This document shows positions 2,714 through 32,668 of a stretch of DNA of 38,717 nucleotides, in pieces (position 1 is the stretch's first letter; each line of letters starts with the position of its first letter). Made by a program: the position numbers and the translations under genes. Under the pieces are notes generated by a model. The model was not told the DNA's origin and made no database searches. It saw only the letters and a program-made list of their open reading frames with translations. The DNA is from Cirrosporium novae-zelandiae (lineage: Eukaryota), in contig JAPETS010000051.1 of the NCBI GenBank assembly GCA_026023565.1, forward strand, positions 124,001-162,717. The letters are read 5' to 3'.

Positions 2714-3054
2714 GGAGGGGATTGTTTCTGACAATAAAATAAACGTAATTATCGGCCTGTAATAGTTTCTTGCAACCTATGAGTTCTCCTCCGAGAAATA
2801 CAACAGAAGGTAATTGAGAAACAACTTTGATTGAGATAACACCGGAAGAGGCCACAGAAGCTGTATGGAAAGACAAGTTTGGTCTATTGCACGCCTTTCC
2901 TTTTGCAACATTAGCAGCGGGAGTACCCGCAGGCTCGCTTACTGTGTAGAGGAGAGGAAAGAAGGAACGACATCATGGGTGGGAATATCAATATCACTAG
3001 TTATAAACAGAACCCGTATTAATTTTTGTCTTGTAAAAAGATACCGATATCAAC

Positions 3055-4508
3055 ATGGGTCATCCGGCCATTGAAAGTGAGTGCAAGTAGTGCGTGCAGA
3101 ATTCAGTCTATTGCTGATACATGCACAGCTCCCAAGCGGAAAGCGGCCAACGAACTCCACCCTACCTCAGCCCAGAAGCGACCAAAAACGAAAGAAACTT
3201 CAGAGAAGCGAACTACAACTGCGACGCCGGTTCAGTTCATTGAGAAGGTAAGTGGCCTAGTTGTCCTGCAGCTCACTCTTCGCACTCTCCACACCCTGCA
3301 TTTTAGTTTAGTAGCACTAATGATAGCCCTCAAGCCTGCTGTGATTGAAGAACGTAAAGGCGAGATCGAATTTCGCGCCCTCAACAATGATGGCGAGCCT
3401 GAGTCCAGTATCCTCCTCACGGGCCTTAAGGTCACATTCCAGAAGCAGTTGCCCAAAATGCCCAAGGATTACATAGCCCGTTTGGTATACGATCGAACAC
3501 ACGTCAGTGTAGCCATTGTTAAACATCCGCTCGAGGTTGTTGGGGGCATCACCTATCGCCCATTTGCGGAACGAGGGTTTGCCGAGATTGTCTTTTGTGC
3601 CATTTCTTCTGACCAACAGGTCAAAGGTTATGGAGGACATCTGATGAACCATGTCAAGGTAATGGTCCTTGGGAGAATTTATATATTGCTGAAATTCTGA
3701 CATGTCTTCCAGGACTATATTCGAGCAGCCAATCAAGAAAAAAAGATAGAGCATCTCTTAACGTATGCGGATAATTACGCCATTGGATACTTTAAGAAAC
3801 AGGGTTTTACAAAGGAAATCACCCTGGACCCTAAAATATGGATGGGGTATATCAAGGATTACGAAGGGGGAACTCTCATGCAATGCTCGATGTTACCAAG
3901 GATCCGATATCTGGAGGCAGCAAGGATGCTTCTTAAACAAAAGGAAGTTGTCCATGCCAAAATCCGTGCTGTTTCCAGGAGTCATGTTGTCTATAACCCA
4001 CCAAAAGCATGGAAGAATGGTGTTACCCCACTTGAACCTTTGAGCATCCCTGGTATCAAGGAGAGCGGTTGGAGTCCGGACATGGATGAACTTGCCCGAC
4101 AACCACGTCATGGACCCAATTATAGTCAACTTCTTCATCTTCTCAGTGATCTACAGAACCATTCATCGTCTTGGCCATTTACTCAACCCGTTAATGGTGA
4201 AGAGGTGACTGATTACTATGATGTTATTAAAGAACCTATGGATCTAGCAACCATGGAAGCAAAGTTGGAAAAGGACCAATATCCAATGGTGGAAGATTTC
4301 ATCAAGGATGCAAAACTTATATTCGACAACTGTCGTGCATATAACAATCCAGACACACCATACGCTAAGAGTGCTAATAAGTTAGAAAAGTTTATGTGGA
4401 CACAGATCAGGAACGTTCCTGAGTGGTCGGTAAGCATGGACTTATTTTTTCATCCCGATCAGGGTCTACATACTAACTGGGGTTTAGCATCTCGCTGATG
4501 ACAGATGA
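3055..4508 (+). CDS. GCN5: histone acetyltransferase Gcn5 (GNAT + bromodomain), 400 aa; exons 3055-3076, 3129-3247, 3335-3658, 3713-4429, 4488-4508
   Basis: [69 protein letters not shown]; bromodomain [22 protein letters not shown]. Four GT-AG introns give a continuous frame. Confidence 0.97.
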
Positions 4509-5054
4509 GTTATTCATCTTTGATTAACGCGCCTAGCATATAACTATCGGCATTTTCAAGGCGTCTATAGGGAATATTAATGTGGCGTTAAAGGGTTAAC
4601 TGTACGTAAAGGAAGGTATACCATAACAAGAACAGGCATGGTTCTTAGTGTCGGTACACTTGTATTTTCAAACCCAAATGATGAATGAAGAAATCGTGGA
4701 ATAAATATCTCCGAAGTCCTTGGTTGTAGTTGACTAATGGTTTGCATACAGTAAAGAAGGTGGGCTACATATGCCTCTTACGGTATTGGTCGGGAACTCG
4801 GGGCAATGGCGCCATTCAGCCCTATCATTATTGGAGACCCATCTTTTATCACTTTATATGACGCTGAATGCTACATTCATCAATGACTACTTTTTAGTTT
4901 ATTTTAATTCTCTATTCTGTTCATCACCATTGCCTGTATAATGAGATATTATATTAATTTTTACCTTTGAAATTGGCCCATCAGACCTCGGGAACTGCTT
5001 GATCGAAGCTTATCCCCCGCCAAACATAGCTACCCCTCCTTTACTGCAACCACC

Positions 5055-6164
5055 ATGTCTCCCACATCCACCTTCACCAGCATTCCAATCCTCGACCTCT
5101 CACTGGCGCGCGATGCGCAAACGAAACCTGCCTTCCTCGCCGACCTCCGCCATGCGCTCCTCACCGTGGGATTCCTCTACATCACCAACACGGGCATCCC
5201 CCCGGACCTCATCTCAACGGTGATATCCCAAACGCACTCCTTCTTCTCCCTGCCCATGGAAGAAAAGCTGCGCATCGAGATGAAAAACGCGAATTCCTTC
5301 CTGGGCTACTCCCGCCTAGACAACGAAATCACAGCGCACAAAATCGACCACCGCGAACAGCTCGACCTCTCAACCCCACACCCGCTTCCCGCGCCGGGAA
5401 GCCCCCTCTACAAAAACCTCCTCGCGCCAAACCAATGGCCCTCCCCGACCATGCTCCCTACCTTCCGCCCCATATTCGAGGACTACATCACCCGAATGTC
5501 GCATCTGGCCACAGAATTCACCTCTCTAATCGCCGAATCCATCGGTCTACCCGCAACAGCCTTCGACCGCTTCTTCGACAAGGACCAACAGCATAAGCTC
5601 AAACTTGTTAAATATCCAGACACTTCCACCACCACCACCACCCTCACCGACGACGAAGAAAAACCCATCACATCCCAAGGCGTCGGCCCCCACAAAGACA
5701 GCATGCTAACCTCCTATCTCCTCCAAGCAACCCCGCACCGGGGCCTGCAAGCCCAAAACGCCACCGGGGACTGGATAGACTGTCCCCCCCTCCCCTCAAC
5801 CCTCATCGTAGCCATCGGCCAGGGCCAGGGCCTCGAAGCCATCACAGCCGGCGTCTGCCGCAGCACAACACACCGCGTGGTATCCCCCGCCGCGGGGTCC
5901 GGCGCCCGCTACAGCATCCCGTTTTTTCAGGGCGTGAGCTATGATGCTAAGTTTGAGAGTATGGAGGGGTGGATCCCTGAGGAGGTTTTGGGACTCAGGT
6001 CGCAGGAGAGGAGGGGGGGTGGGGATAGTGACGGGGGGGTCGAGTTCACGTTTAAGATGGGGAGGTGGGATTGTTTGGGGGAGGCGACGCTTGCGAATAG
6101 GGTGAAGAGTCATCGTGATGTTGGGGAGGTTTGGTATCCGGAGCTTTTGAGGGAGGTAGGGTAG
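5055..6164 (+). CDS. 2-oxoglutarate/Fe(II)-dependent oxygenase (IPNS/DIOX-like), 369 aa, intronless
   Basis: IPILDLS..VGFLYI N-terminal DIOX pattern, GPHKD (HxD), distal His in STTHRV, and RYS (RxS) cosubstrate-binding motif. Confidence 0.9.
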   Translation: MSPTSTFTSIPILDLSLARDAQTKPAFLADLRHALLTVGFLYITNTGIPPDLISTVISQTHSFFSLPMEEKLRIEMKNANSFLGYSRLDNEITAHKIDHREQLDLSTPHPLPAPGSPLYKNLLAPNQWPSPTMLPTFRPIFEDYITRMSHLATEFTSLIAESIGLPATAFDRFFDKDQQHKLKLVKYPDTSTTTTTLTDDEEKPITSQGVGPHKDSMLTSYLLQATPHRGLQAQNATGDWIDCPPLPSTLIVAIGQGQGLEAITAGVCRSTTHRVVSPAAGSGARYSIPFFQGVSYDAKFESMEGWIPEEVLGLRSQERRGGGDSDGGVEFTFKMGRWDCLGEATLANRVKSHRDVGEVWYPELLREVG

Positions 6165-6690: not shown

Positions 6691-9416
6691 TCAACTTTCC
6701 TCCCCCCCCCTCAAAACCGAAGGCGGTAAATCTCCCTCCCCAGTCCCCCACTCCCCTTCCCTCTCCGCCAAAACCAATTCCAAAACGCCCCCCTTGAGAA
6801 AAAACTCATGACCGATCCAATTCCTCTTATAGGATACCCTATCCAACCTAGCCTCCTTTACAAAAATCCTGTCATACCCGGCATCGAAGTTGACACATTT
6901 GATAGTTGCTGTGTTGCCGGTGACAGGGTTTGTGATACTGATGGAGGGGAAGAAAGGTGGGGTGATTAGGTAGACGTCTTGGCCGGCGACGGGGTAGAGG
7001 CCGAGCATTGCGAGGACGGCAAAGGCGCCCATGGCGCCGCTGTCGTCGTTTCCTGGGATGCCGTTGTAGGAGGCGTTGAAGAGGGAGGGGATGTAGGAGT
7101 GGGCGTATTTTGAGGATAGGCCCGGTCGGGCGGAGTAATGGAACTGGAAGACCGTGAGGAAGGCCTGCTCGTCGCCCATGTTTAGGAGGTTTGGGGTGCT
7201 GTGCAAGTATTCAAGACGCGCGGTGAAGGATTCTGGGCCGCCGAGGGTGGCGATTAGGGATTCATGATCGTGCGGGGCGAAGAATGTGTAGAGGAAGGAA
7301 CTGCCTTCGTAGGTTTCGTGACCGCCGGTGCCGAAGTAGCACGAGTCTGGGTTTAGCAAGGGGGAGCAGTAGAGGGGGTCTTGATAGGCGAAGGTGGTGT
7401 TTAAGAGGCGCGGTTGGAGGAAGCCGGTGAACGGGGTGACGGTGCCGTCAATGAACGATTGCTGGTTTGGGTTGTAGAGGTTCTTCCAGTTGAAGGACCG
7501 TGAGAGGTATTTGGTGGCGTCGTCGGGACGGTCCAGGTAGGTGGCGAGCCGTGAGATGCAGTAGTCGTCGTAGGCGTATTCCACCGTGCGTGAGATGCTG
7601 CGCGTGAAGGGACCAGAGCTGTGTTTGTCGTTGTAGGTGTGGTCGTCGAACGGTATGTAACCGACTGTTTTCCACGACGTGAGACCCCCGCGGCCTTCGA
7701 CGTTCCAGTCGTAGGGTTCGTCTTCTGCGTCCGAGACCACGGCTTCGTAGGCCATGTCCCAATCGATGGCCGCGCCGAGCGTGGTGTTGGCGAATTTGAG
7801 GTAAAAGTCCACTAGGACGATGTCCGCGTTTGAGCCACCTTGCGTGTAGCCTTTGCAGAAGGACATTCGACAATCGGGGAGTTTGCCTATGGGAAGTTAG
7901 AGGGAGGGGAGATATATAAGGAGGGAAATGGAAGTAGGAACCTTCGTGTCGATATATATCGATCAGAGCTCTGACCATCCGTGCTTGCGATTCAGGGTCG
8001 ACTATCGTAAGCAGAGGGTGCTGGCTCCTGAAGGAGTCCCAGATACTGCACTCGTCAGGTTCGAATCCACTAAAGGGTCATAAAGAGAGCACTGGCTCTT
8101 GAAACATACCAATAAAAAGAATCATAATAAGGCTCGGTGCTATGCCAAAGGGGATTCTCGCCCGTGTAATCTTGAGGGGATATCATCGTCCTATATATCC
8201 CACTCCAGAATACCTTTTGCAATTCTTCACTTACACCAGTAGCATCAACCTTGACAACGTCTAATTTCTGGCGCCAGGCTTCCCTGGCTACTCTCCGCGT
8301 CTTCCTAAAATTAAAATCCGGAATCTCATTCTCGGCGTTCCCGCAGGCTCGATCCACACTCAGGGCTGAAACCCCCACCCTCACGAGGATCTGATTATTC
8401 CTTGTGGGAGCTTCGAACTGCGTCCAAGCACCGCCGGATGTTAGACCCGGCATGGGCTTTACATAGAGATTCTTTAGGTCGTTCTCGGCAAAGTTGCTAT
8501 TCCAGATTCCTGTGTCACGCACAGGTGCGCCGGCGAAGTCTACGCAGAAATGAAGATCATAAGATCCTAAGCCGAACGAGGGGCCAAAGGTACCAGTCCC
8601 AGAGATGCGCCCAGTTTGGGGGTCGACAGATGCAGTTGCATGTTTACAGGCGGTATTGAGATCATTTAGGTCCACGAGGATTAAGGGGTTGAGAGGTGTT
8701 TGAGGATCAGTAGTATCCTGATCGGGAAAGGTAAACCTATATAAAGCAGAATGATTTGACACTGTCATTTCGGCACGAATAGAGGTATTAAGCGTAATGG
8801 AAAAGTATCCCGGGGTTGCTTCTACTGAATCATCTACCCATTGACTAGCTCGATCCGTTCTCGTGAATTTGCAATTATTAAGGTCACCGTCGGGGCAGCC
8901 GCTCTGTGGGAAAATGGGGAAGTTCCCTAGACCGTTAGACTGATTCCTATCAGCAACAAGTCTATTGCAACCTAGAGAAAGAATGCTATCAAAAAGGCTC
9001 TCATACTCCACCAGTCCCAGAATCATGCATGTGAGAAAATCCTATGATTTCTTTCCCATCAGTCGCGAAACCACCTTGGCCATCCTCGGTGGCATCTGCA
9101 ACGGCCTTCGCCATGCCTTGATCACGTTAGTATATTACTATTCTTTCAACATGGCTTTTGGGGGTTGAACCGTAGGGTAAAGTGGCTCCTGCAAATACAT
9201 GACCTATTGAAAAAAATTCTAGTAAGTGTTCAGAACGAAATTTAACGATCAGGACATTGTTCAACCTCCATGGGCAGTTCCGATGAGCGGATCTATGAAT
9301 TGTAACACGTCGGTTTTAGAAGAAGTAGAGGTGATAGGGTTGGCAATAGCTGAAAAGATAAAATGAAGAAATATGAAAGAGTGAAGAAAGCCATTGGAGA
9401 CTAGAAAATACATCAT
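6691..9416 (-). CDS. secreted GH92 alpha-1,2-mannosidase, 807 aa; exons 9416-9266, 9203-9171, 9116-9007, 8939-8110, 8045-7942, 7886-6691
   Basis: Hydrophobic signal peptide; IDPLIGT..GHVFAGATLPYGMAKAVAD, GFSHMHDSGTGG, YYDSFYCIWDSFR, TQGGSNAD, SRTVEYAYDD, GDEQ, PGNDDSGAM. Five introns yield 2424 nt in frame. Confidence 0.93.
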
Positions 9417-9920: not shown

Positions 9921-10843
9921 TCACCATGGCACAACCACAGGCTCTGTATTCCCCTCTTCCATCTGCCAAAACCCATTAGCATACTTCCCCCTAGGTGCAT
10001 TCACCAACTCCACCACCACCTTCGCTCCATTCAAAGCATCTCTCCCCCGATGTCCTGAGAAATCCGTCGCCGTCAACCCAGGTGTCACGACATGCATCAC
10101 GATATGGGCGTTTTCTTTCTCCATGGCGTACATCACTGTCACCATGTTGAGCGCCGCCTTGGCTGCACAATACGGACTTGCGCGCACCACCGGGAATTTT
10201 CCTGACATTGAGGATCTCATGGAACCACGCTTCGAGGAGACGTTGATGATGTACGCGGTGGGGGAGAGTCGAAGGAGGGGTAGGAATAGTGCTATGGTGA
10301 GGGCAACAGAGGTGACGTTGATGTTGAAGTTGGAATTGTAGGCGCTATGGAGGGTCGAGGGGGGAGAAGCCGTGGTGCCGAGGACGCCCGCATTATTGAT
10401 GAGAACTACTCACAGCTATATTAATCAAGAGGTCTTTGCTCTCCCCGACGCCGTAGACCATCTTGCACTCTCAAGAGAATAAGACGACATATCATCTAGA
10501 TTCCCATAATTATCCTTTACCTCCTCGACAGCCGCTTGTATGCCCTCGTCGGACGTGATATCAAGTTCTAAGACGTCAGTCCTAGACACAATATCAAGGT
10601 CTCGCAGTCTTTTGATAGTCTCGAGACCTTTTTCTTTACTACGACACACAAGCACATAATAATCAGATGGCGTACGTTGCGTAAGAGATTGGAGGATTGC
10701 AAATCCCACGCCTATTATTAGATATGAGCAAGTGCACTTGTATAAACAAGTCGCGTTATATCCTTGGTGGTATATATAACGTTTAGGATCGTAAGTACTG
10801 TACCTCTATTTGCGCCGGTAATGAGTATGGTTCTCGGAGCCAT
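9921..10843 (-). CDS. classical short-chain dehydrogenase/reductase, about 247 aa; exons 10843-10804, 10711-10493, 10405-9921; intron 2 donor non-canonical, possibly a young pseudogene
   Basis: ITGANRG|VG (TGxxxGxG), LD|VLINNAG, INVSS, YCAAK (YxxxK), PG..TDF. Intron 2 reads ATATGT...TAG rather than GTATGT. Confidence 0.82.
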
Positions 10844-11612: not shown

Positions 11613-14600
11613 CTAAGCAGGCTCCAACGTACTAAGAGGCACATACTTTGCCTCCTCAGTACTCCTTCGGCCGACCAATCTCCCAACACCTCTAGCCCAG
11701 CGACCGAACACACTACTACTTCTCCCATCCACATTTCTGTCCAACTCCTCTTTTGCCAACCATTTAGGCCGTTTCCACAACTTTAATAGCAAACTGCTAG
11801 CCACGACACTTACACTACTAGCAGCCATTGCCATTCCAGCCGCCATTGGATGTACCATCGGTCCGCCAAATGGCAAAAACAACCCCATCGCAAAAGGTAA
11901 GCCAAGGACATTGTATATAGTTGCCCAAGCAAGATTCAACTTGATGCGGCCGAATATTGCCTTGGCGAGGCAGAGAGCCGCAGGAACGAGTAAAAGGTCT
12001 TCGGGCTGCATGAGTACGATATCGGCAGCCTCCATAGCGACATCCGTCCCACTCGCCAGTGCAATACCCACAGCGGCGGTTGCGAGAGCAGGGGAATCGT
12101 TGATGCCGTCGCCAACCATGGCTACTGTATATCCATCCGCTTGCAAGTCTGCAATGATGGACTGTTTCATAGGTGGCGTAACAGACGCGTGGACATTCTC
12201 TGGAGGGATGCCAGTTCGAGCAGCGACACTATGTGCTGTTGAAAGAGTGTCACCGGTGAGGAGAGAAGTCGAAATGTTCATGGCATGAAGAGCAATGATG
12301 GTAGAACGAGCAAGAGGTTTGATGGTGTCTGATAGGTGAAGGATGCCTGCGAAGCTGGAGCCAATTGCTATATAGATGCTTGTCGTACCATCACTAGAGG
12401 ATGATTTGGTATTATCATCGTCCATGAAGGCAGAGGGAGGGATAGTAACACCATTGGATTGGAGGAAGGTGCTTGTGCCGAGGAGGACATGGTAGCGGAT
12501 TCGGTCGGTAGAAGAAGCGGGTTCAACGGTTGCTGAAACACCGTTGCCCACAGTTGCAGAAAATTCGCCGATACTCCCATCAATGGTTCCGTCGTTACTG
12601 ACACCAAGCTCGGATTTGGATGCATTAACAATTGCTTTTGCAACAGGATGTTCACTCCCCATCTCGGCCAAACCAACAAGTGTCCACCATAAGCGTCTTC
12701 TCCATTCATTTGATCTCCAGACAGGTTCAATTCTAGTAATGGCAAGACTCATTTTCCCCATTGTCAGTGTTCCTGTCTTGTCGAATACAATATGATTAAT
12801 TTTGGTTGTTGTTTCGAGTGAAGCCCCACTCTTAAAAAGGATACCATTTTCGGCACCAACTCCAGTGCCGACCATTACTGCAGTAGGCGTGCTCAGGCCT
12901 AGGGCACATGGACAAGCGAAGACGATAACGGATATGCAGAGCTTGAGGCAAACGAAGAGTTTACCGCCACTCGCTTCATCCAAGAATATCTTCGGCGGGT
13001 GACTTAGGGCATGACTTAGGACCATCCAAATCATAAACGTGAGTAGACCAAGGGCAATGATTGCAGGAACAAAGTACCCAGCGACCACATCAGCCATTCT
13101 TTGAATCGGTGCTCGACTAGTCTGGGCATCTTGAACAAGTCGAACAATTTGGCTAAGTTTGGTATCACTTCCAGCGCGAGTCACCTTGAAGTCAACCCTA
13201 CCAGAACCATTGACTGTACCTGCCATGAGAATACTTCCGGCCTTTTTAACAATTGGATTTGCCTCTCCAGTGACCATGCTTTCATCAACATGCGTCTCAC
13301 CTCTGAATACGATGCCATCAGCGGGTATTTGATCTCCAGGACGAAGAAGAACCAAATCTCCTGTTTCAAGAAGGTCTGTTGAAACCTTCTTTTCTTCGAA
13401 TGGATTAGCGGCTTGGCCCTCTTCTCCACTTTTTTCGGGCTTTGGAATCGAAGTGTTAGTTTTACTCCATTCTTCTGTGGCCTTTTCTGCGGCGATTGGA
13501 TCGACGTAAATTGTTGCCATAGAAGGTGCAAGAGACATAAGACGGGAAAGTGCTCTTGATGTCTGGCCTTTTGCCCTGTTTTCGAGATATCTTCCGAGGG
13601 TGATAAATGTGATGAGCATTGTGCTTGTATCAAAAACGGTCCCGGGTCTGGTATGCGGAGGGCAGAATACCGACACAAGAATGGCAGTAACACTAAAGAA
13701 GAACGCAGCAGAAGTGCCAAGGACAACAAGAACATCCATAGTTGGAGATCCGTGCCGTAATGACTTGAATGCGGATTTGTAAAATCGAGCTCCGATACCA
13801 AATTGAACTGGGATTGTGAGAAGCATGCAGACAATGTCTCCAACATAAAGGCCTGGAATGATCATACAGGAACCATAGTCCAATATTGGAAGGTACATGG
13901 GTATTAACATGCTAATGCAAAACACGGGTATAGCTAAGAAAAGTGAGATCTTGAATGTACGCCACCATTCCTGAATCTCTTTTGTTTTTGCCAATGATTC
14001 CAGTTGTGCATTATTGTCATCTGAATCTGCCAATATAGCATTGCAGCCGGTTGCTGGGACAGCATCAACAATCCTTCGTAGACCTACTAATAATGGATCA
14101 TATGTTACGGTAGCTCGGGAGTTGTCCACATTGATGGTGACACCGATAACTCCAGGAAGCTGTCGCAATGTATTCTCAACCTTCGCCGCTACCAATGATG
14201 CTGATTCTACGGCAGCTTCGGTATCTACAGTGCTGTCCACGAAGCGCCCTCGAGAGTCCTGCTGAGAACGTTGTAGGCCAAACAACTTTAGTTGGGTAGT
14301 CGCAGACGACTTCGACTGAATTTCGTTTGCTGCCACAGTTGAGAGTAATCTCGCATCGAATCCTGTATCCTCGATCGTTTCCATTATGTTCTCCACTGAA
14401 AGTATCGAAGGGTCATGAGAGATGACAGCTCGTTCCGCTAAAAGGCTGATGTTGAACCGGACCATTCCTTTCACGTCCTTAAATGCATTTTCCACAGCAG
14501 CAGTACAGGCACCGCACGTCATTCCTTCAACAGCGACCGTAGTCGTTGCCACCATCGGAATATTATTGTTACTTCTTCGTTTCTGTTCCCCCGAGACTTT

Positions 14601-15131
14601 TGCCTCCGCTGTCTTGACATCTAACACTTTAGCATCAAAGCCAATATCCTCAATCACGGTAGCAAGTTCATCAGGCTTGATGACCAATTCATCATGTTCA
14701 ACGACAGCCCGATTTGCCATTAACGAAACAGTTATTGTTTTGACTCCATCAACATTCTTGAAGGCGCCTTCTACAGCAGAAGTGCATGCGCCGCAAGTCA
14801 TTCCCTCCACCGCCAACGTCGTTGTAGAGAAAGCAGCTTTATCGTCGGCTTTATCGGAAGGGTCTGTTGAGAGAAGGTCCGTAGATAAAACTTCGGCGTC
14901 GAAACCACAATCTTCTATCGTTTCCTTGACTTGTTCGACATTGACCATGCTCGGGTCATGACGGACAACCGCTCTACCCATGATCAAGCTCACAGAAACA
15001 TTTTCAACACCATTCATAGTTTCGAATCCCCCTTCTACCGCCGCAGTGCAGGCACCACAAGTCATCCCATCCACGCGGAGAGTTGTGGTAGCCATGTGCG
15101 CGGTGGGGGCATCCGGATTTATGGCATCCAT
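11613..15131 (-). CDS. ccc2: P1B-1 copper-transporting ATPase (Ccc2/CtpA-like), 1172 aa, intronless
   Basis: Three GMTCGAC metal-binding domains plus one degenerate HMA domain; TGE, CPC, DKTGT, SEHP, GDGIND, YN and MxxSS motifs. Confidence 0.95.
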   Translation of the reverse strand: MDAINPDAPTAHMATTTLRVDGMTCGACTAAVEGGFETMNGVENVSVSLIMGRAVVRHDPSMVNVEQVKETIEDCGFDAEVLSTDLLSTDPSDKADDKAAFSTTTLAVEGMTCGACTSAVEGAFKNVDGVKTITVSLMANRAVVEHDELVIKPDELATVIEDIGFDAKVLDVKTAEAKVSGEQKRRSNNNIPMVATTTVAVEGMTCGACTAAVENAFKDVKGMVRFNISLLAERAVISHDPSILSVENIMETIEDTGFDARLLSTVAANEIQSKSSATTQLKLFGLQRSQQDSRGRFVDSTVDTEAAVESASLVAAKVENTLRQLPGVIGVTINVDNSRATVTYDPLLVGLRRIVDAVPATGCNAILADSDDNNAQLESLAKTKEIQEWWRTFKISLFLAIPVFCISMLIPMYLPILDYGSCMIIPGLYVGDIVCMLLTIPVQFGIGARFYKSAFKSLRHGSPTMDVLVVLGTSAAFFFSVTAILVSVFCPPHTRPGTVFDTSTMLITFITLGRYLENRAKGQTSRALSRLMSLAPSMATIYVDPIAAEKATEEWSKTNTSIPKPEKSGEEGQAANPFEEKKVSTDLLETGDLVLLRPGDQIPADGIVFRGETHVDESMVTGEANPIVKKAGSILMAGTVNGSGRVDFKVTRAGSDTKLSQIVRLVQDAQTSRAPIQRMADVVAGYFVPAIIALGLLTFMIWMVLSHALSHPPKIFLDEASGGKLFVCLKLCISVIVFACPCALGLSTPTAVMVGTGVGAENGILFKSGASLETTTKINHIVFDKTGTLTMGKMSLAITRIEPVWRSNEWRRRLWWTLVGLAEMGSEHPVAKAIVNASKSELGVSNDGTIDGSIGEFSATVGNGVSATVEPASSTDRIRYHVLLGTSTFLQSNGVTIPPSAFMDDDNTKSSSSDGTTSIYIAIGSSFAGILHLSDTIKPLARSTIIALHAMNISTSLLTGDTLSTAHSVAARTGIPPENVHASVTPPMKQSIIADLQADGYTVAMVGDGINDSPALATAAVGIALASGTDVAMEAADIVLMQPEDLLLVPAALCLAKAIFGRIKLNLAWATIYNVLGLPFAMGLFLPFGGPMVHPMAAGMAMAASSVSVVASSLLLKLWKRPKWLAKEELDRNVDGRSSSVFGRWARGVGRLVGRRSTEEAKYVPLSTLEPA

Positions 15132-16556
15132 ATCTGAGGAGCGGAATATTTAAATGTCATAAAAGGACGTATTGCATTTCAACAGAAGGTTGAGAGGAGA
15201 TGTTTGTTCAAGTACCTGTCACTTGTGCAACAGATAACAGAGAGGGGAGATGGAAAAGCTGAAAAGGATTTATGTCAGATTCATCCTAATCGAGATGGGA
15301 CTGGCGTACAGGTTTTGAGGTAATATCCACTAAGCTGACCAACACCAAGAGGAGCCCTAGTAGGGCCTTTGTATCGTCAAGATCAGCAAATTTTTAGAAG
15401 TAGAAGCCAGCTCCCACGTAACTAACAATTGAATTTAGAGAGATGCATTATGTTAGAAAGCAAAGAATTAAGTAGTAAGAGGAATTGACAAGATACAAAT
15501 AGATAAATAAATGAGCGATAATATCGTCTTTGATAAATTGAATTCAACAAAGAATATTGCGCTAAATGGTGGTAAAGGTTGACTAAGCTGAAATAGAGAA
15601 AGTCTCGGCGGTTCAACCAGGGAAACCAACCGAGGCTTGAACCATTTAGGTTACTCAATCACCTCTCCATCTACTCGAGTAGATGCTTGCCCATGCTTGC
15701 TAATTCTGTGACGACGATTCCGTCATCTATCCTATCATTTGTATCTAATATTAACCCTTTATCCATCAATTTACATACTTGTACATAATGTATTCATCTT
15801 TGTTTTCCCCTTCTTCTACCATGGATGAAGTACAACACCTGGTATCTGCCTAGATGGATGTATATAATACTCCTTTGATGCTTTCTCCCCATCTCTTCCT
15901 TAATTGGTCACCATCTGACTTTCTGCCCATTAAGCCTTCAACCTTAAATACAATCCGAATCTACGCTCAAACGTGTACTGCGTGATGTATCGGTGACCGA
16001 CACCTTCTCCCGCTTTAATCCTTGGAGGAGTTCCTGGGAGCCAAGAAAGGAAACGTCAAAAAAGTAATCAAAATAGCCTCCTAGGACAATAATATCAACA
16101 TTCGATCCGAGCCTCCATCCAAAACCGGACATGCTATATTATCAAGGATTTATGGCATTATGGTATTACACCAATAGAGTTGTAAGTGGCCAGCATCCAT
16201 AGCTTGTAGTTCGTAAAGCCAGCCACGCGCATTGGCATTTGTAGGGAATCGAGCCAACCAAAGTCATATGCAACATTTCACCACAGAAAGGAGAACAATA
16301 GTTACACAATAACGATCAGCAAAGAAGTCTGATACGTAAGGTAGGCTTTTCTTCACATACTCTCATCCGCATGAACGCACGCACTGCCCATGCCTATCAA
16401 ACTTTGAAAGAGTGAGAATGATTTTTAAAGCGCTTCATCATGAGACTGCCGCAGCTTCAAAGGGAAAAAAAGATAATGTGGGGGGTATCACCTCCAGCTC
16501 CTAAAAGCCCGCTTAAAACGCCCCCTTCAATACCAAACGAAAATCATAGTCGAACC

Positions 16557-20710: not shown

Positions 20711-20828
20711 TTCTAGGAGCTCGCGATGAGGTGTTCTTTTTTCTTGCTCTCCAATTCATTCAATACAAATCAAATTCAACAAATAATAACCTTTCTTTCA
20801 TAAATCTTCCACATCACAAAAAGTAAAC

Positions 20829-21864
20829 ATGCCTGCTTCTCCCACCGTCAAGCTCGCCAGCGGCCACGAAATGCCCCTCGTGGGCTTCGGTACCTGGAAA
20901 CTCACCGGCCAGGAAGCCACTGATGCCGTTTACCAGGCCATTAAGATGGGCTACCGTCTGATTGATTGTGCCCAAGGTACATATCCAAACCCTAGCTCAA
21001 ATTCCTGTCCTCAACTAAGATACTGACGTCCTAATTCCAGACTACGACAACGAGAAGGAAGTCGGTGCTGCTGTCCGCAAGGCCATCGCCGACGGTCTTG
21101 TCAAGCGTGAGGAGCTCTTCCTCGTCTCCAAGATCTGGAATCAATTCCACGACTTCAAGCGAGTGGAGCCCATGTGCCGCAAGCAACTTGAGGACTGGGG
21201 CGTCGACTACTTCGACCTCTACCTCATGCATTTCCCCCTCTCCTCTCGCTTCGTTGACCCCGCCAAGCGTTACCCGCCAAACTTCTTCGAAGAGGATGGC
21301 AAGACCCTCGTGGCTGACGGTGAAGCCACAATCCAGGAAACATGGACTGCTATGGAACACCTTGTGGACAGGAAAATTGTTCGCAGTATCGGCATTTCCA
21401 ACTTCCAAGCTCAACTCCTGATGGATCTCCTCCGATACGCTCGCATTCCCCCATCAACCCTCCAAATAGAACACCACCCATACCTCGTCCAACCCGCTCT
21501 CGTCAAATATGCCCAACAACACGGCCTCCGCGTGACCGCCTACTCGTCCTTCGGCACCGCCTCCTTCCTCGAAATGGGTGTCAAGCAGGCTTTCGACACC
21601 CCTCTCCTTTTCGACCATCCCGTTATCAAGAAGATTGCTGAGGCACACGGCAAGACTTGCTCGCAGGTCCTCCTCCGATGGTCTACCCAGCGCGAAATTG
21701 CTGTTCTGCCAAAAGCCACTGATCCTACATTCGTCGCCATGAATCTCGACTCCACGAGTTTCGACCTCACAGAGAAGGAATTCGAGGAAATTGACGGCCT
21801 CGACAGGAAGCTAAGATTCAATGACCCGTTGAACTATGGTTTCTTTATTCCATGCTTTGCATAA
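20829..21864 (+). CDS. xyl1: D-xylose reductase, aldo-keto reductase family 2B, 323 aa; exons 20829-20976, 21041-21864
   Basis: [17 protein letters not shown]; catalytic tetrad D (IDCA), Y (QDY), K (SKIWN), H (MHFP); [26 protein letters not shown]. Intron 20977-21040 GTACAT..CTGAC..CAG. Strong C-ending codon bias. Confidence 0.92.
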
Positions 21865-22666
21865 AAAATTCAATAGGATGAATGTTAGGGACGGAGTTTT
21901 TGACTTTTGGGTTCTGCATGGCTAGGATCTCCTGCTTGTTTAGTAGTAGGGTTAGATTTATGAAAATATGAAATAAAATGAGTTCGCTCTCGTATCTGTG
22001 TTTGATGCCATGTAAGCAATCCTCGAAGATCTCGACCGCCAAACCTAGACTAAGAAAAAACATGGTCGAGCCAACATCACACCTCTCTAGAGTTGAATAT
22101 TTGTCAGTTGCCAAAGTTGATATCACAATTGAGGCCGTACACTAAATACACTAATAGAATTCTGTTTGAAATGTAGGATTGCCATTCATCATAGACCATA
22201 CGGCTTTTCACAATCAACCCCCTTTCCATCCTAGTACAAAATAAAACAAAACTTGAAAGCAATGGCCCTTGCATGGACTTCTGGTATCATAGATAATAAA
22301 TGGAATGAAAGAAAACGCCTGTAATATCCCCACCACCTAGCCAGGTGAGCCAGGAAGATAAAGCCATGCCAGCCCTTACAGCACAGCCATGCAACCCCCT
22401 ATCTAAGATAGTAGCCAGATTGCGGTTGTGGCGACCCAAGATTATCACACCTGACCACAAAAATGCCAGCATCTTTGATATTCAATGTGCGCGATCCACA
22501 AGCTCTAAATAAGCTAGCGAATAAAAGAACTATCCCCGAGGCCTTCAGCGATTATTTTCCCCAAAAGTTCGTTAAAGGTAGAAACAGAGGCTATCGTAAC
22601 ATCATTGCGTTCCTGTATCGAAACAAAACTTGACTTTTGTTGCCTATTTTGATGTACAAGGGCTTC

Positions 22667-31245: not shown

Positions 31246-32668
31246 AGCTGTAGCTATGACTGGTAGCCTTGCTTGATTAAAAATGCAAAAAGAGACGTGT
31301 TTGTGGGAAGGGATTGAAATGACGGGTTCGGATGTAGAAAAGGCTTGACTGGTAAGGAAATGCACATAAAATGGGAACCTGTAGGATTGCTTCTAGAATA
31401 TATACTCGAAAAAAATACTAAGGAAGATGACGAACGGAGCTGGCGCAGCCTGATGCATGGACATGACACCGACCTCATTTGATATCACCCAATATTCTTT
31501 CTTCTTAGAACGAACTATTCAGCTGACACTGCCATGTTGATTTCAGCTGGCATTTCGAGATAGATAGCCTGATTGGAGAGGCCGAAGAAGCGAATATGAG
31601 AAAGAGAGGGTTGCCAGATTTGGTGAAAATGGACTTGAATAATCAGAAGGCATGAATGGTGGGCTGATGGCGGTAAAGTCTTCGATCATTCCTGTCCTTG
31701 GCCGACAAGGCTGCATTGGCGAAGACACCTGCAGCCCATGTCATTAATATCAGGAACTAGAACATAGAAGAAGTAAATAGGTCTTTGATCCTCGGTTGAG
31801 TGGAATTTTCTTGAGGTTAGGACGAGATTGGGACAAGATTGTAGCCTTTAGTTGTTGAGATGGCGTACTGTGCAATTTACACTTCTTTCAATATGCTGTT
31901 GTAGAAACTCCCCGAGTACAGTGACTGCTGAGCTGTGATTCGGAAGACTTGTTGTGTAATGTACAATTATTGACAGGCTGTCGTGTGGTAAGCATAGCGA
32001 ACTGAGCTCCTAGTTTATTAAACAACAGGAATTCAATTGTCCTATCAAAATGACGGTGTAAATACTGTAGTAATGTTACACATAAATCAACAAAATAAAA
32101 GCCTAAGTTGTTCGAGTACATCATCTCTCACATCTTTTCGTTGTTGTGGATAGGTACTTTTTTGGTATGAATCCCCGATGGTTTGAGGTGAGGAGAAAAG
32201 CCTTGTTAGTTGTTTTGTTTACCCATTGGTATTTGTTTAATAGAATTGACATTAATACCCAATTCGTAATTCTCGTATCCTAAAATATTATTAGAAAAGA
32301 GAAAGAAAAAATGTGTATATACAATATTCACATAATTCCAGGCTGATGAGCTGATAAACAATTGATCTGAGATGACTGATCTTCAGGGGTGGGTGGTCAG
32401 TGGCCACACAAGTTGATAGCACAGTAAACATCGACCAATCTTCTACTGAGTACTTTATCTGCTTTGGTCGCTTTTTCCGACCCTTAGACTACTGTAATGG
32501 CTTCACCTTCATGCTTAATGCCTGGAATCCTAAAGCCAAGACAATAGGCCAAGTGACTTTCATGTAAGCCTGTTTCTCCCTCTTCTCTTCCACTTGCATT
32601 ATTATCATCATGGAGACTTTTCATTCTTTCACTTGACTATCAATGGGCCAAGTCCTCAGTGTTTAAAT

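Follow-up and report, generated by a model that had tools for sequence, protein, structure and literature searches.

A classic obstacle to engineering yeast for xylose fermentation is that the xylose reductase (XR) uses NADPH, whereas the xylitol dehydrogenase uses NAD. The residues that form the XR pocket for the 2'-phosphate of NADPH have been targets of two decades of protein engineering (PMC2213684; PMC3334502). Lys270, Ser271, Asn272 and Arg276 of Scheffersomyces stipitis XR are all described as touching this phosphate, and the wild-type motif is printed as IPKSNTVPRL (PMC2213684, Table 1). The pattern KSN-X3-R is regarded as the specificity motif of XRs, with Lys274 as the main charged ligand and with main-chain amides also facing the phosphate (PMC7068945); it marks NADPH specificity rather than membership of the XR clade (PMC7068945). 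Saturation mutagenesis and screening of S. stipitis XR yielded the variant 2-2C12 (K270S/S271G/N272P/R276F), which prefers NADH 13.2-fold by kcat/Km, with a Km of 0.147 mM for NADH and 0.472 mM for NADPH (PMC2213684). In the R276H variant, the kcat with NADPH decreases from 10.5 to 0.3 per s, while that with NADH is unchanged and the Km for NADPH is 1.7 µM (PMC3334502). The C. tenuis K274R/N276D variant has an Rsel of 5.8 compared to 0.03 for the wild type (PMC3334502); the numbers of Petschacher et al. (2005) are given here second-hand, as reported in that paper.

Natural deviations from this motif have been described in yeasts. C. intermedia XR2 carries KGD-X3-H and shows an NADH/NADPH activity ratio of 0.99, and Sp. 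passalidarum XR2, with an Asp at position 276, shows a ratio of 1.21 (PMC7068945). Sp. passalidarum XYL1.2 is an NADH-preferring paralogue that is induced at low oxygen (PMC10848558). The XRs of filamentous fungi that have been tested so far prefer NADPH or use it solely, with NADH activity being lower or none (PMC8020424). The same source states that the XyrA/PRD1/XYR1 clade usually has one member per species (PMC8020424).

The stretch of DNA analysed here, referred to as the window, comprises 38,717 nucleotides from Cirrosporium novae-zelandiae, which is assigned to the class Xylobotryomycetes (NCBI taxonomy). It contains a reductase gene of two exons with canonical splice sites and a frame that is open throughout, encoding a product of 323 amino acids (Table 1). 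Removal of the intron yields a junction stretch of 13 residues that is collinear with XR homologues, and the joined product is identical to the database protein P0003, which is listed in one database source as 'MAG: NAD(P)H-dependent D-xylose reductase (XR) [Cirrosporium novae-zelandiae]'. The protein matches the Pfam family PF00248 (Aldo_ket_red) with an E-value of 2.7e-34 and a score of 119 bits, the cut-off being 24. In HMMER searches, exon 2 matches the C. tenuis XR structures (1jez, 1k8c, 1mi3) with an E-value of 1.2e-86, and the closest solved relatives are the XRs of C. tenuis, D. nepalensis and S. stipitis (E-values of 1e-86 to 5e-82). XRs lead the matches in the PDB, approximately 100 bits above aldehyde and aldose reductases. 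The sequence identity amounts to 52–53% to C. tenuis AKR2B5 and to 60–66% to Aspergillus-type XRs; under the nomenclature rule for aldo-keto reductases (AKRs), identity with a named member of a subfamily has to exceed 60%.

Table 1. Features of the reductase gene and their positions in the window
Feature	Positions	Strand	Remarks
Exon 1	20829..20976	+	Starts with ATG; residues 1-49 and first base of codon 50; carries Trp23 and Asp46
Catalytic Asp46 codon	20964..20966	+	In exon 1
Intron	20977..21040	+	64 nt, GT..AG, with CTGAC branch-like site
Exon 2	21041..21864	+	Residues 50-323, then TAA stop; carries the Pfam PF00248 and C. tenuis XR matches
Tyr51 codon	21043..21045	+	From exon 2 translation
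Lys80 codon	21130..21132	+	From exon 2 translation
His113 codon	21229..21231	+	From exon 2 translation
Cofactor loop, 11 residues (217-227)	21541..21573	+	Glu227 kept; Thr222 in place of Pro
2'-phosphate loop LPKATDPTF (residues 272-280)	21706..21732	+	Lys274 kept; Ile272Leu, Ser275Ala, Asn276Thr, Arg280Phe

In an alignment of 49 sequences, the columns of Asp46, Tyr51, Lys80, His113, Trp23 and Asn310 are invariant and those of Asp50 and Glu227 nearly invariant, and the window protein has kept all of them. The catalytic tetrad (D46, Y51, K80, H113) and the glutamate of the SF-x-E motif, Glu227 in the sequence SFLE, are intact, as a preliminary description of this DNA had stated. Asp50 and Asn309 are XR substrate-pocket residues. 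The substrate-pocket residues Trp23, Asp50 and Asn310 are all present in the window protein, the role of Trp23 being described in PMC8020424, and the C-terminal loop of 10 residues equals the consensus of the relatives. The codon bias is the strongest among nine open reading frames (ORFs) of the window, with an Nc of 42.3 compared to a range of 43.9–59.0 and with a GC3 of 0.66, in agreement with the earlier view of a strongly biased, intact gene. An AlphaFold2 model based on the 49-sequence alignment has a mean pLDDT of 95.3 and a pTM of 0.92, with a pLDDT of 93 at residues 271–280. It superimposes on 1k8c and 1r38 with TM-scores of 0.96–0.98 and an rmsd of 1.2–1.3 Å at 52–53% identity, and on the XR crystal structures of C. 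tenuis, D. nepalensis and S. stipitis with TM-scores of 0.93–0.98 and an rmsd of 1.2–2.2 Å. The model forms a (beta/alpha)8 barrel, and its top 50 structural matches are all AKRs. The gene is thus predicted to be a functional aldose (xylose) reductase of the XyrA/XYL1 clade in the AKR superfamily, with xylose as its putative substrate, and we are highly confident that its predicted product works as an aldose reductase and is of the XR type.

The exception to this canonical picture is found in the cofactor pocket. The segment LPKATDPTF is encoded within exon 2 and aligns gap-free (HMMER) with IPKSNLPER at chain positions 272–280 of C. tenuis XR (1jez_A), so that the protein's own residue numbers coincide with the C. 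tenuis chain numbers in this region (Lys274, Ala275, Thr276, Phe280 and also Glu227). The preliminary description had read LPKATDPTF in place of IPKSNxxxR and had mapped it, in S. stipitis numbering, as K270 kept, S271A, N272T, an Asp at 273 and R276F. This mapping is right, given the gap-free alignment and the printed S. stipitis motif IPKSNTVPRL (PMC2213684), and the four positions are indeed 2'-phosphate contacts and engineering targets (PMC2213684; PMC7068945). The XR coenzyme motif, IPKS followed by an Arg five residues downstream (KSN-X3-R), is absent, with Pro and Lys alone being kept in LPKATDPTF. The change from KSN-X3-R to KAT-X3-F replaces three of the four ligand side chains for the 2'-phosphate, and residues 275–283 (ATDPTFVAM) hold no basic residue to replace the Arg.

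This change exceeds the ordinary variation among close homologues, a point on which the preliminary description had proposed a check. Among the best 120 of 2614 homologues, all 119 other proteins keep IPKS[NS]xxxR (the variable residue being Asn in 117 and Ser in 2), the nearest relative is 66% identical, and none of the 119 is named Cirrosporium novae-zelandiae. Furthermore, a word search with residues 255–300 in 5.8 billion protein clusters returned the self match only, and an orthologue with the same motif is therefore not available. One element of the proposed remodelling does not stand: the Asp at 273 occurs in 18 of the 119 relatives (IPKSND..., for example IPKSNDPTR), so that the D-P-T stretch is ancestral and the Asp lies outside the remodelling.

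The preliminary description had also named assembly errors as a possible source of the substitutions. A single assembly is known; however, a Logan contig of run X1, made by a second assembler, is identical to positions 20750..21900 (1151 bases) at a word depth of 354 with no variant listed, and the motif differs at several separate codons, all of them in frame. It is therefore extremely improbable that the motif results from faulty sequencing or assembly. Run X1 perhaps derives from the source sample; its contig excludes an assembler artefact, yet does not represent an independent specimen.

The departures of the window protein lie both within the cofactor loops and beyond them. Column conservation was measured in 91 sequences of 300–345 amino acids, 29 of the 120 having been dropped for length. 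At 120 columns that are at least 95% conserved in the 90 full-length relatives, the window protein departs at 15 (G52D, G60A, R63K, L81I, I94M, L118S, L162I, P222T, A257S, I272L, S275A, N276T, R280F, L281V and V287S), compared to a median of 1 and a next highest value of 9 in the other sequences. The two cofactor loops hold six of the 15. Within residues 272–281, five of the seven conserved columns are altered as opposed to 10 of 113 elsewhere (Fisher p 2.8e-4, with the region chosen post hoc). P222T affects the second cofactor loop, YSSFGPxSFxE, whose Pro is shared by all 90 of the canonical XRs in the comparison. The remaining nine departures lie outside the loops and include G52D by the catalytic Tyr51 and L118S near His113, so that the substrate may also differ.

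The phylogenetic position of the protein was examined with a quick IQ-TREE analysis (LG+C20+F+G4) of 74 rows, hand-picked from approximately 385 proteins so as to include canonical XRs, the variant clades and representatives at a greater distance. The window protein nests within a 23-row clade of canonical Eurotiomycete/Lecanoromycete XRs (SH-aLRT 98), and is thus derived from the ordinary XyrA-type reductase rather than belonging to an ancient family of paralogues. Its terminal branch measures 0.76 compared to a median of 0.16, approximately five times as long. The branch is lengthened because the class is sparsely sampled (the nearest match is at 66% among the best 120 of 2614 homologues). 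However, the terminal branches of other isolated lineages in the 74-row tree measure 0.2–0.43, and the sparse sampling of Xylobotryomycetes thus accounts for part of the length only.

Such a branch, together with 15 departures at conserved columns that include G52D beside Tyr51 and L118S after His113-Phe114-Pro115, is what a neofunctionalised reductase would show, namely a lineage-specific copy, or the orthologue, that has switched to a different carbonyl or polyol substrate and whose altered cofactor pocket belongs to this new physiological role. The surroundings of the gene would also suit such a protein. The neighbours of the reductase encode Rad1, a GCN5-like protein, a 2OG oxygenase, GH92, a copper ATPase, PPP4R2 and GH47, with no pentose pathway cluster among the window genes, and XlnR-type GGCTAR sites occur at chance level (27 in the window versus 27.4 expected), one of them approximately 845 bp upstream of the ATG. 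However, XR genes are not usually clustered, so that gene context says little. In addition, the protein shares W23, D50, N310 and its C-terminal loop with canonical XRs, and the model lies on XR structures at an rmsd of 1.2–1.3 Å. We consider neofunctionalisation unlikely. The length of the branch and the number of conserved columns that are altered could also reflect a redundant copy under relaxed selection that is decaying, with impaired cofactor binding, in a genome that possibly holds a second, canonical copy. This seems very unlikely for a gene in which 323 codons are open and the splice sites intact, 105 of the 120 conserved columns are kept, all catalytic residues included, the codon bias is the strongest among the window ORFs measured, and the fold is confidently predicted.

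Several other genes of the window deserve a short description. A GCN5-like gene is probably represented by a GNAT acetyltransferase part (3023..3700, +) that abuts a bromodomain part (3701..4498, +). The 2OG-Fe(II) oxygenase (DIOX_N and 2OG-FeII_Oxy; 4971..6164, +) has a GC3 of 0.72 and a strongly negative GC skew, and favours C-ending codons as the reductase does. Two mannosidase genes are present. The GH92 alpha-mannosidase-like gene consists of the frames 6691..7896 (-) and 8070..9041 (-), with a GC3 of 0.74 in the C-terminal part versus 0.47 in the N-terminal part and a strong GC skew at 6900..7700, and the GH47 alpha-mannosidase lies in two frames, 32534..33490 (+) and 33518..34441 (+), presumably split by an intron. 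A single frame of 1178 codons (11613..15149, -) encodes a P-type copper ATPase, in which four heavy-metal-associated domains are recognised. The frame 10425..10805 (-), of 126 codons, shows a weak match to short-chain dehydrogenases (22.9 bits, below the Pfam cut-off of 26.6); it may be a remnant or belong, as one exon, to a larger gene. A tRNA scan of the window gave no hits.

In the wider set of fungal XR homologues, for which the motif was read in 150 cluster representatives and in 115 homologues of one representative, the Arg has been lost repeatedly: 27 of the 74 tree rows are without it, and at least seven changes are needed. A clade of Polyporales carries IPKSDTxxQM, and Polyporales such as Sparassis and Dichomitus have a canonical copy and an IPKSDTxxQM copy together. 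A Sordariomycete clade carries IPK[ST]x(R)xx[VTYL]M, often with an Arg at position 277, three residues earlier (IPKxxR...), which might stand in for Arg280 and which the window protein does not have. Flammula carries IPKVTDPVL, and a KAT motif is found in three basidiomycete lineages, represented by Mycena, by Irpex and Cytidiella, and by Fistulina. Among the proteins that illustrate the recurring loss, P0145, P0293, P0295, P0298 and P0320 were singled out. Other homologues, such as that of Kazachstania (IPKSTKKER), combine Thr276 with the Arg. The preliminary description had implied a rather singular case; given the recurrent loss of the Arg in fungi and the natural, dual-cofactor yeast XRs with a changed motif, the case is less singular than this. 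KAT-X3-F thus adds a natural variant to the altered cofactor motifs that have been described for yeast XRs.

A single ancient family of KAT paralogues was considered as an explanation for the resemblance between the window protein and the basidiomycete proteins and was rejected: when the window protein and four KAT proteins are forced into one clade, which was defined after inspection of the tree, the lnL is 101 lower, with a p-AU of 0.003. The resemblance is therefore convergent, with independent origins. For a joint loss of Arg280 and Ser-Asn on the tree, the raw counts are 37/25/10/2, but the phylogenetically controlled test is underpowered, with only 6–7 independent pairs (median p 0.5). 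The protein P0268, with NEKATEDIF at the aligned place, was not used, as its match is broken into three stretches.

With respect to the cofactor, the loss of the guanidinium group of Arg and the hydroxyl of Ser would remove the charge or salt bridge and hydrogen bonds from the 2'-phosphate of NADPH. The Phe ring could still pack on the adenine, and the retained Glu227 would be able to bind the 2'- and 3'-hydroxyls of the NADH ribose. The strong preference for NADPH that is usual in XRs would then be weakened or reversed, resulting in a dual-cofactor or NADH-preferring enzyme. An altered KSN-X3-R together with a retained Glu227, which is the sequence correlate of NADH or dual use, is what the window protein shows. 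Given the laboratory precedent of R276F and the natural dual-cofactor yeast XR with KGD-X3-H, a weakened NADPH preference is a reasonable expectation, and, judged on the sequence, we give an even chance to the proposal that the preference is weakened or reversed. Use of NADH, as put forward in the preliminary description, is a plausible interpretation that is strengthened by the R276F precedent, although the share of R276F in 2-2C12 cannot be separated from that of its three accompanying changes, which include the loss of the Lys.

The protein could also be an ordinary NADPH-preferring XR in which Lys274, the hydroxyl of Thr276 and the main-chain amides hold the 2'-phosphate, the motif having changed by near-neutral drift in an isolated lineage. 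Lys274 is kept, the replacements of Ser by Ala and of Asn by Thr are mild, and R276H retains a tight Km for NADPH (1.7 µM), so that NADPH may still be bound and used when the Arg is gone. Loss of the Arg is, moreover, often tolerated, considering the large Sordariomycete clade and several basidiomycete clades that are without it, and the filamentous-fungal XRs tested so far are NADPH enzymes (PMC8020424). On the other hand, the conservation of S, N/S and R in all 119 nearest relatives (best 120 of 2614) points to a strong constraint in this clade, and three of the four ligand side chains have changed together with the otherwise invariant Pro222. Furthermore, the Arg that many Sordariomycete proteins carry three residues earlier is missing here, and turnover with NADPH is lost in R276H and in the R276F-bearing mutant (PMC3334502; PMC2213684). 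We regard an unaltered NADPH preference as rather unlikely. A bolder version of the preferred reading, weakened or reversed NADPH preference, would make this the first natural NADH-preferring XR of a filamentous ascomycete, in which nature has reached the Arg-to-Phe replacement found in the laboratory, and would see KAT-X3-hydrophobic, having arisen independently here and in several basidiomycetes, as a convergent design rule for NADH. This version is put forward tentatively, as a possibility on the doubtful side of even. In a search of the open-access literature, no natural XR was described that carries Phe at the position of Arg276.

The relevance of this protein lies mainly in enzyme engineering and in the evolution of cofactor specificity. 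A natural enzyme tuned by evolution, with a rebuilt pocket in an otherwise canonical active site, could behave better with NADH than laboratory mutants, which often pay in Km. Such an enzyme, along with the KAT proteins of basidiomycetes, would also show the cofactor pocket to be evolutionarily labile in fungal XRs. If NADPH is still preferred, the protein would simply be a divergent orthologue from a poorly sampled fungal class.

Compared to known systems, the window protein is closest to the canonical XRs of Pezizomycotina (XyrA/XYL1, including 'xyl1' of Aspergillus and Penicillium), with which it groups in the same clade at 60–66% full-length identity and shares the tetrad, the substrate residues and the C-terminal loop. 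The central D-P-T of the motif IPKSNDPTR is identical to that of LPKATDPTF. It differs from these enzymes in KAT-X3-F, Pro222Thr, nine further departures and a branch approximately five-fold the median. C. tenuis AKR2B5 (1jez, 1k8c, 1mi3), at 52–53% identity and TM-scores of 0.96–0.98, has Glu227 and Lys274 in common with the window protein, in which its Ser275, Asn276 and Arg280 are replaced; this enzyme is NADPH-preferring, with an Rsel of 0.03 (PMC3334502).

C. intermedia XR2 and Sp. passalidarum XYL1.2 are likewise divergent XRs with a naturally altered KSN-X3-R, the Arg being lost in the C. intermedia enzyme (CiXR2). However, these proteins carry Gly/Asp/His where the window protein has Ala/Thr/Phe, and the acidic residue at 276 is absent in the latter. 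Moreover, they are assayed second copies beside an NADPH enzyme and belong to budding yeasts, not to Pezizomycotina. The laboratory variant 2-2C12 resembles the window protein in its Arg-to-Phe replacement and in the exchange of Ser and Asn for smaller or less polar residues, but is unlike it in that the Lys is lost and the Km is raised for both cofactors (PMC2213684).

The basidiomycete KAT homologues, for which a literature search found no assays, comprise Mycena epipterygia P0298 (VPKATDEDL), the Irpex and Cytidiella proteins (IPKATNPEL) and Fistulina hepatica P0145 (LPKATTSEMPF), in which an insert of two residues makes the homology of the Phe uncertain. These proteins are only 43–51% identical to the window protein and belong to other clades, but share with it the replacement of Ser by Ala, of Asn by Thr and of the Arg by a hydrophobic residue.
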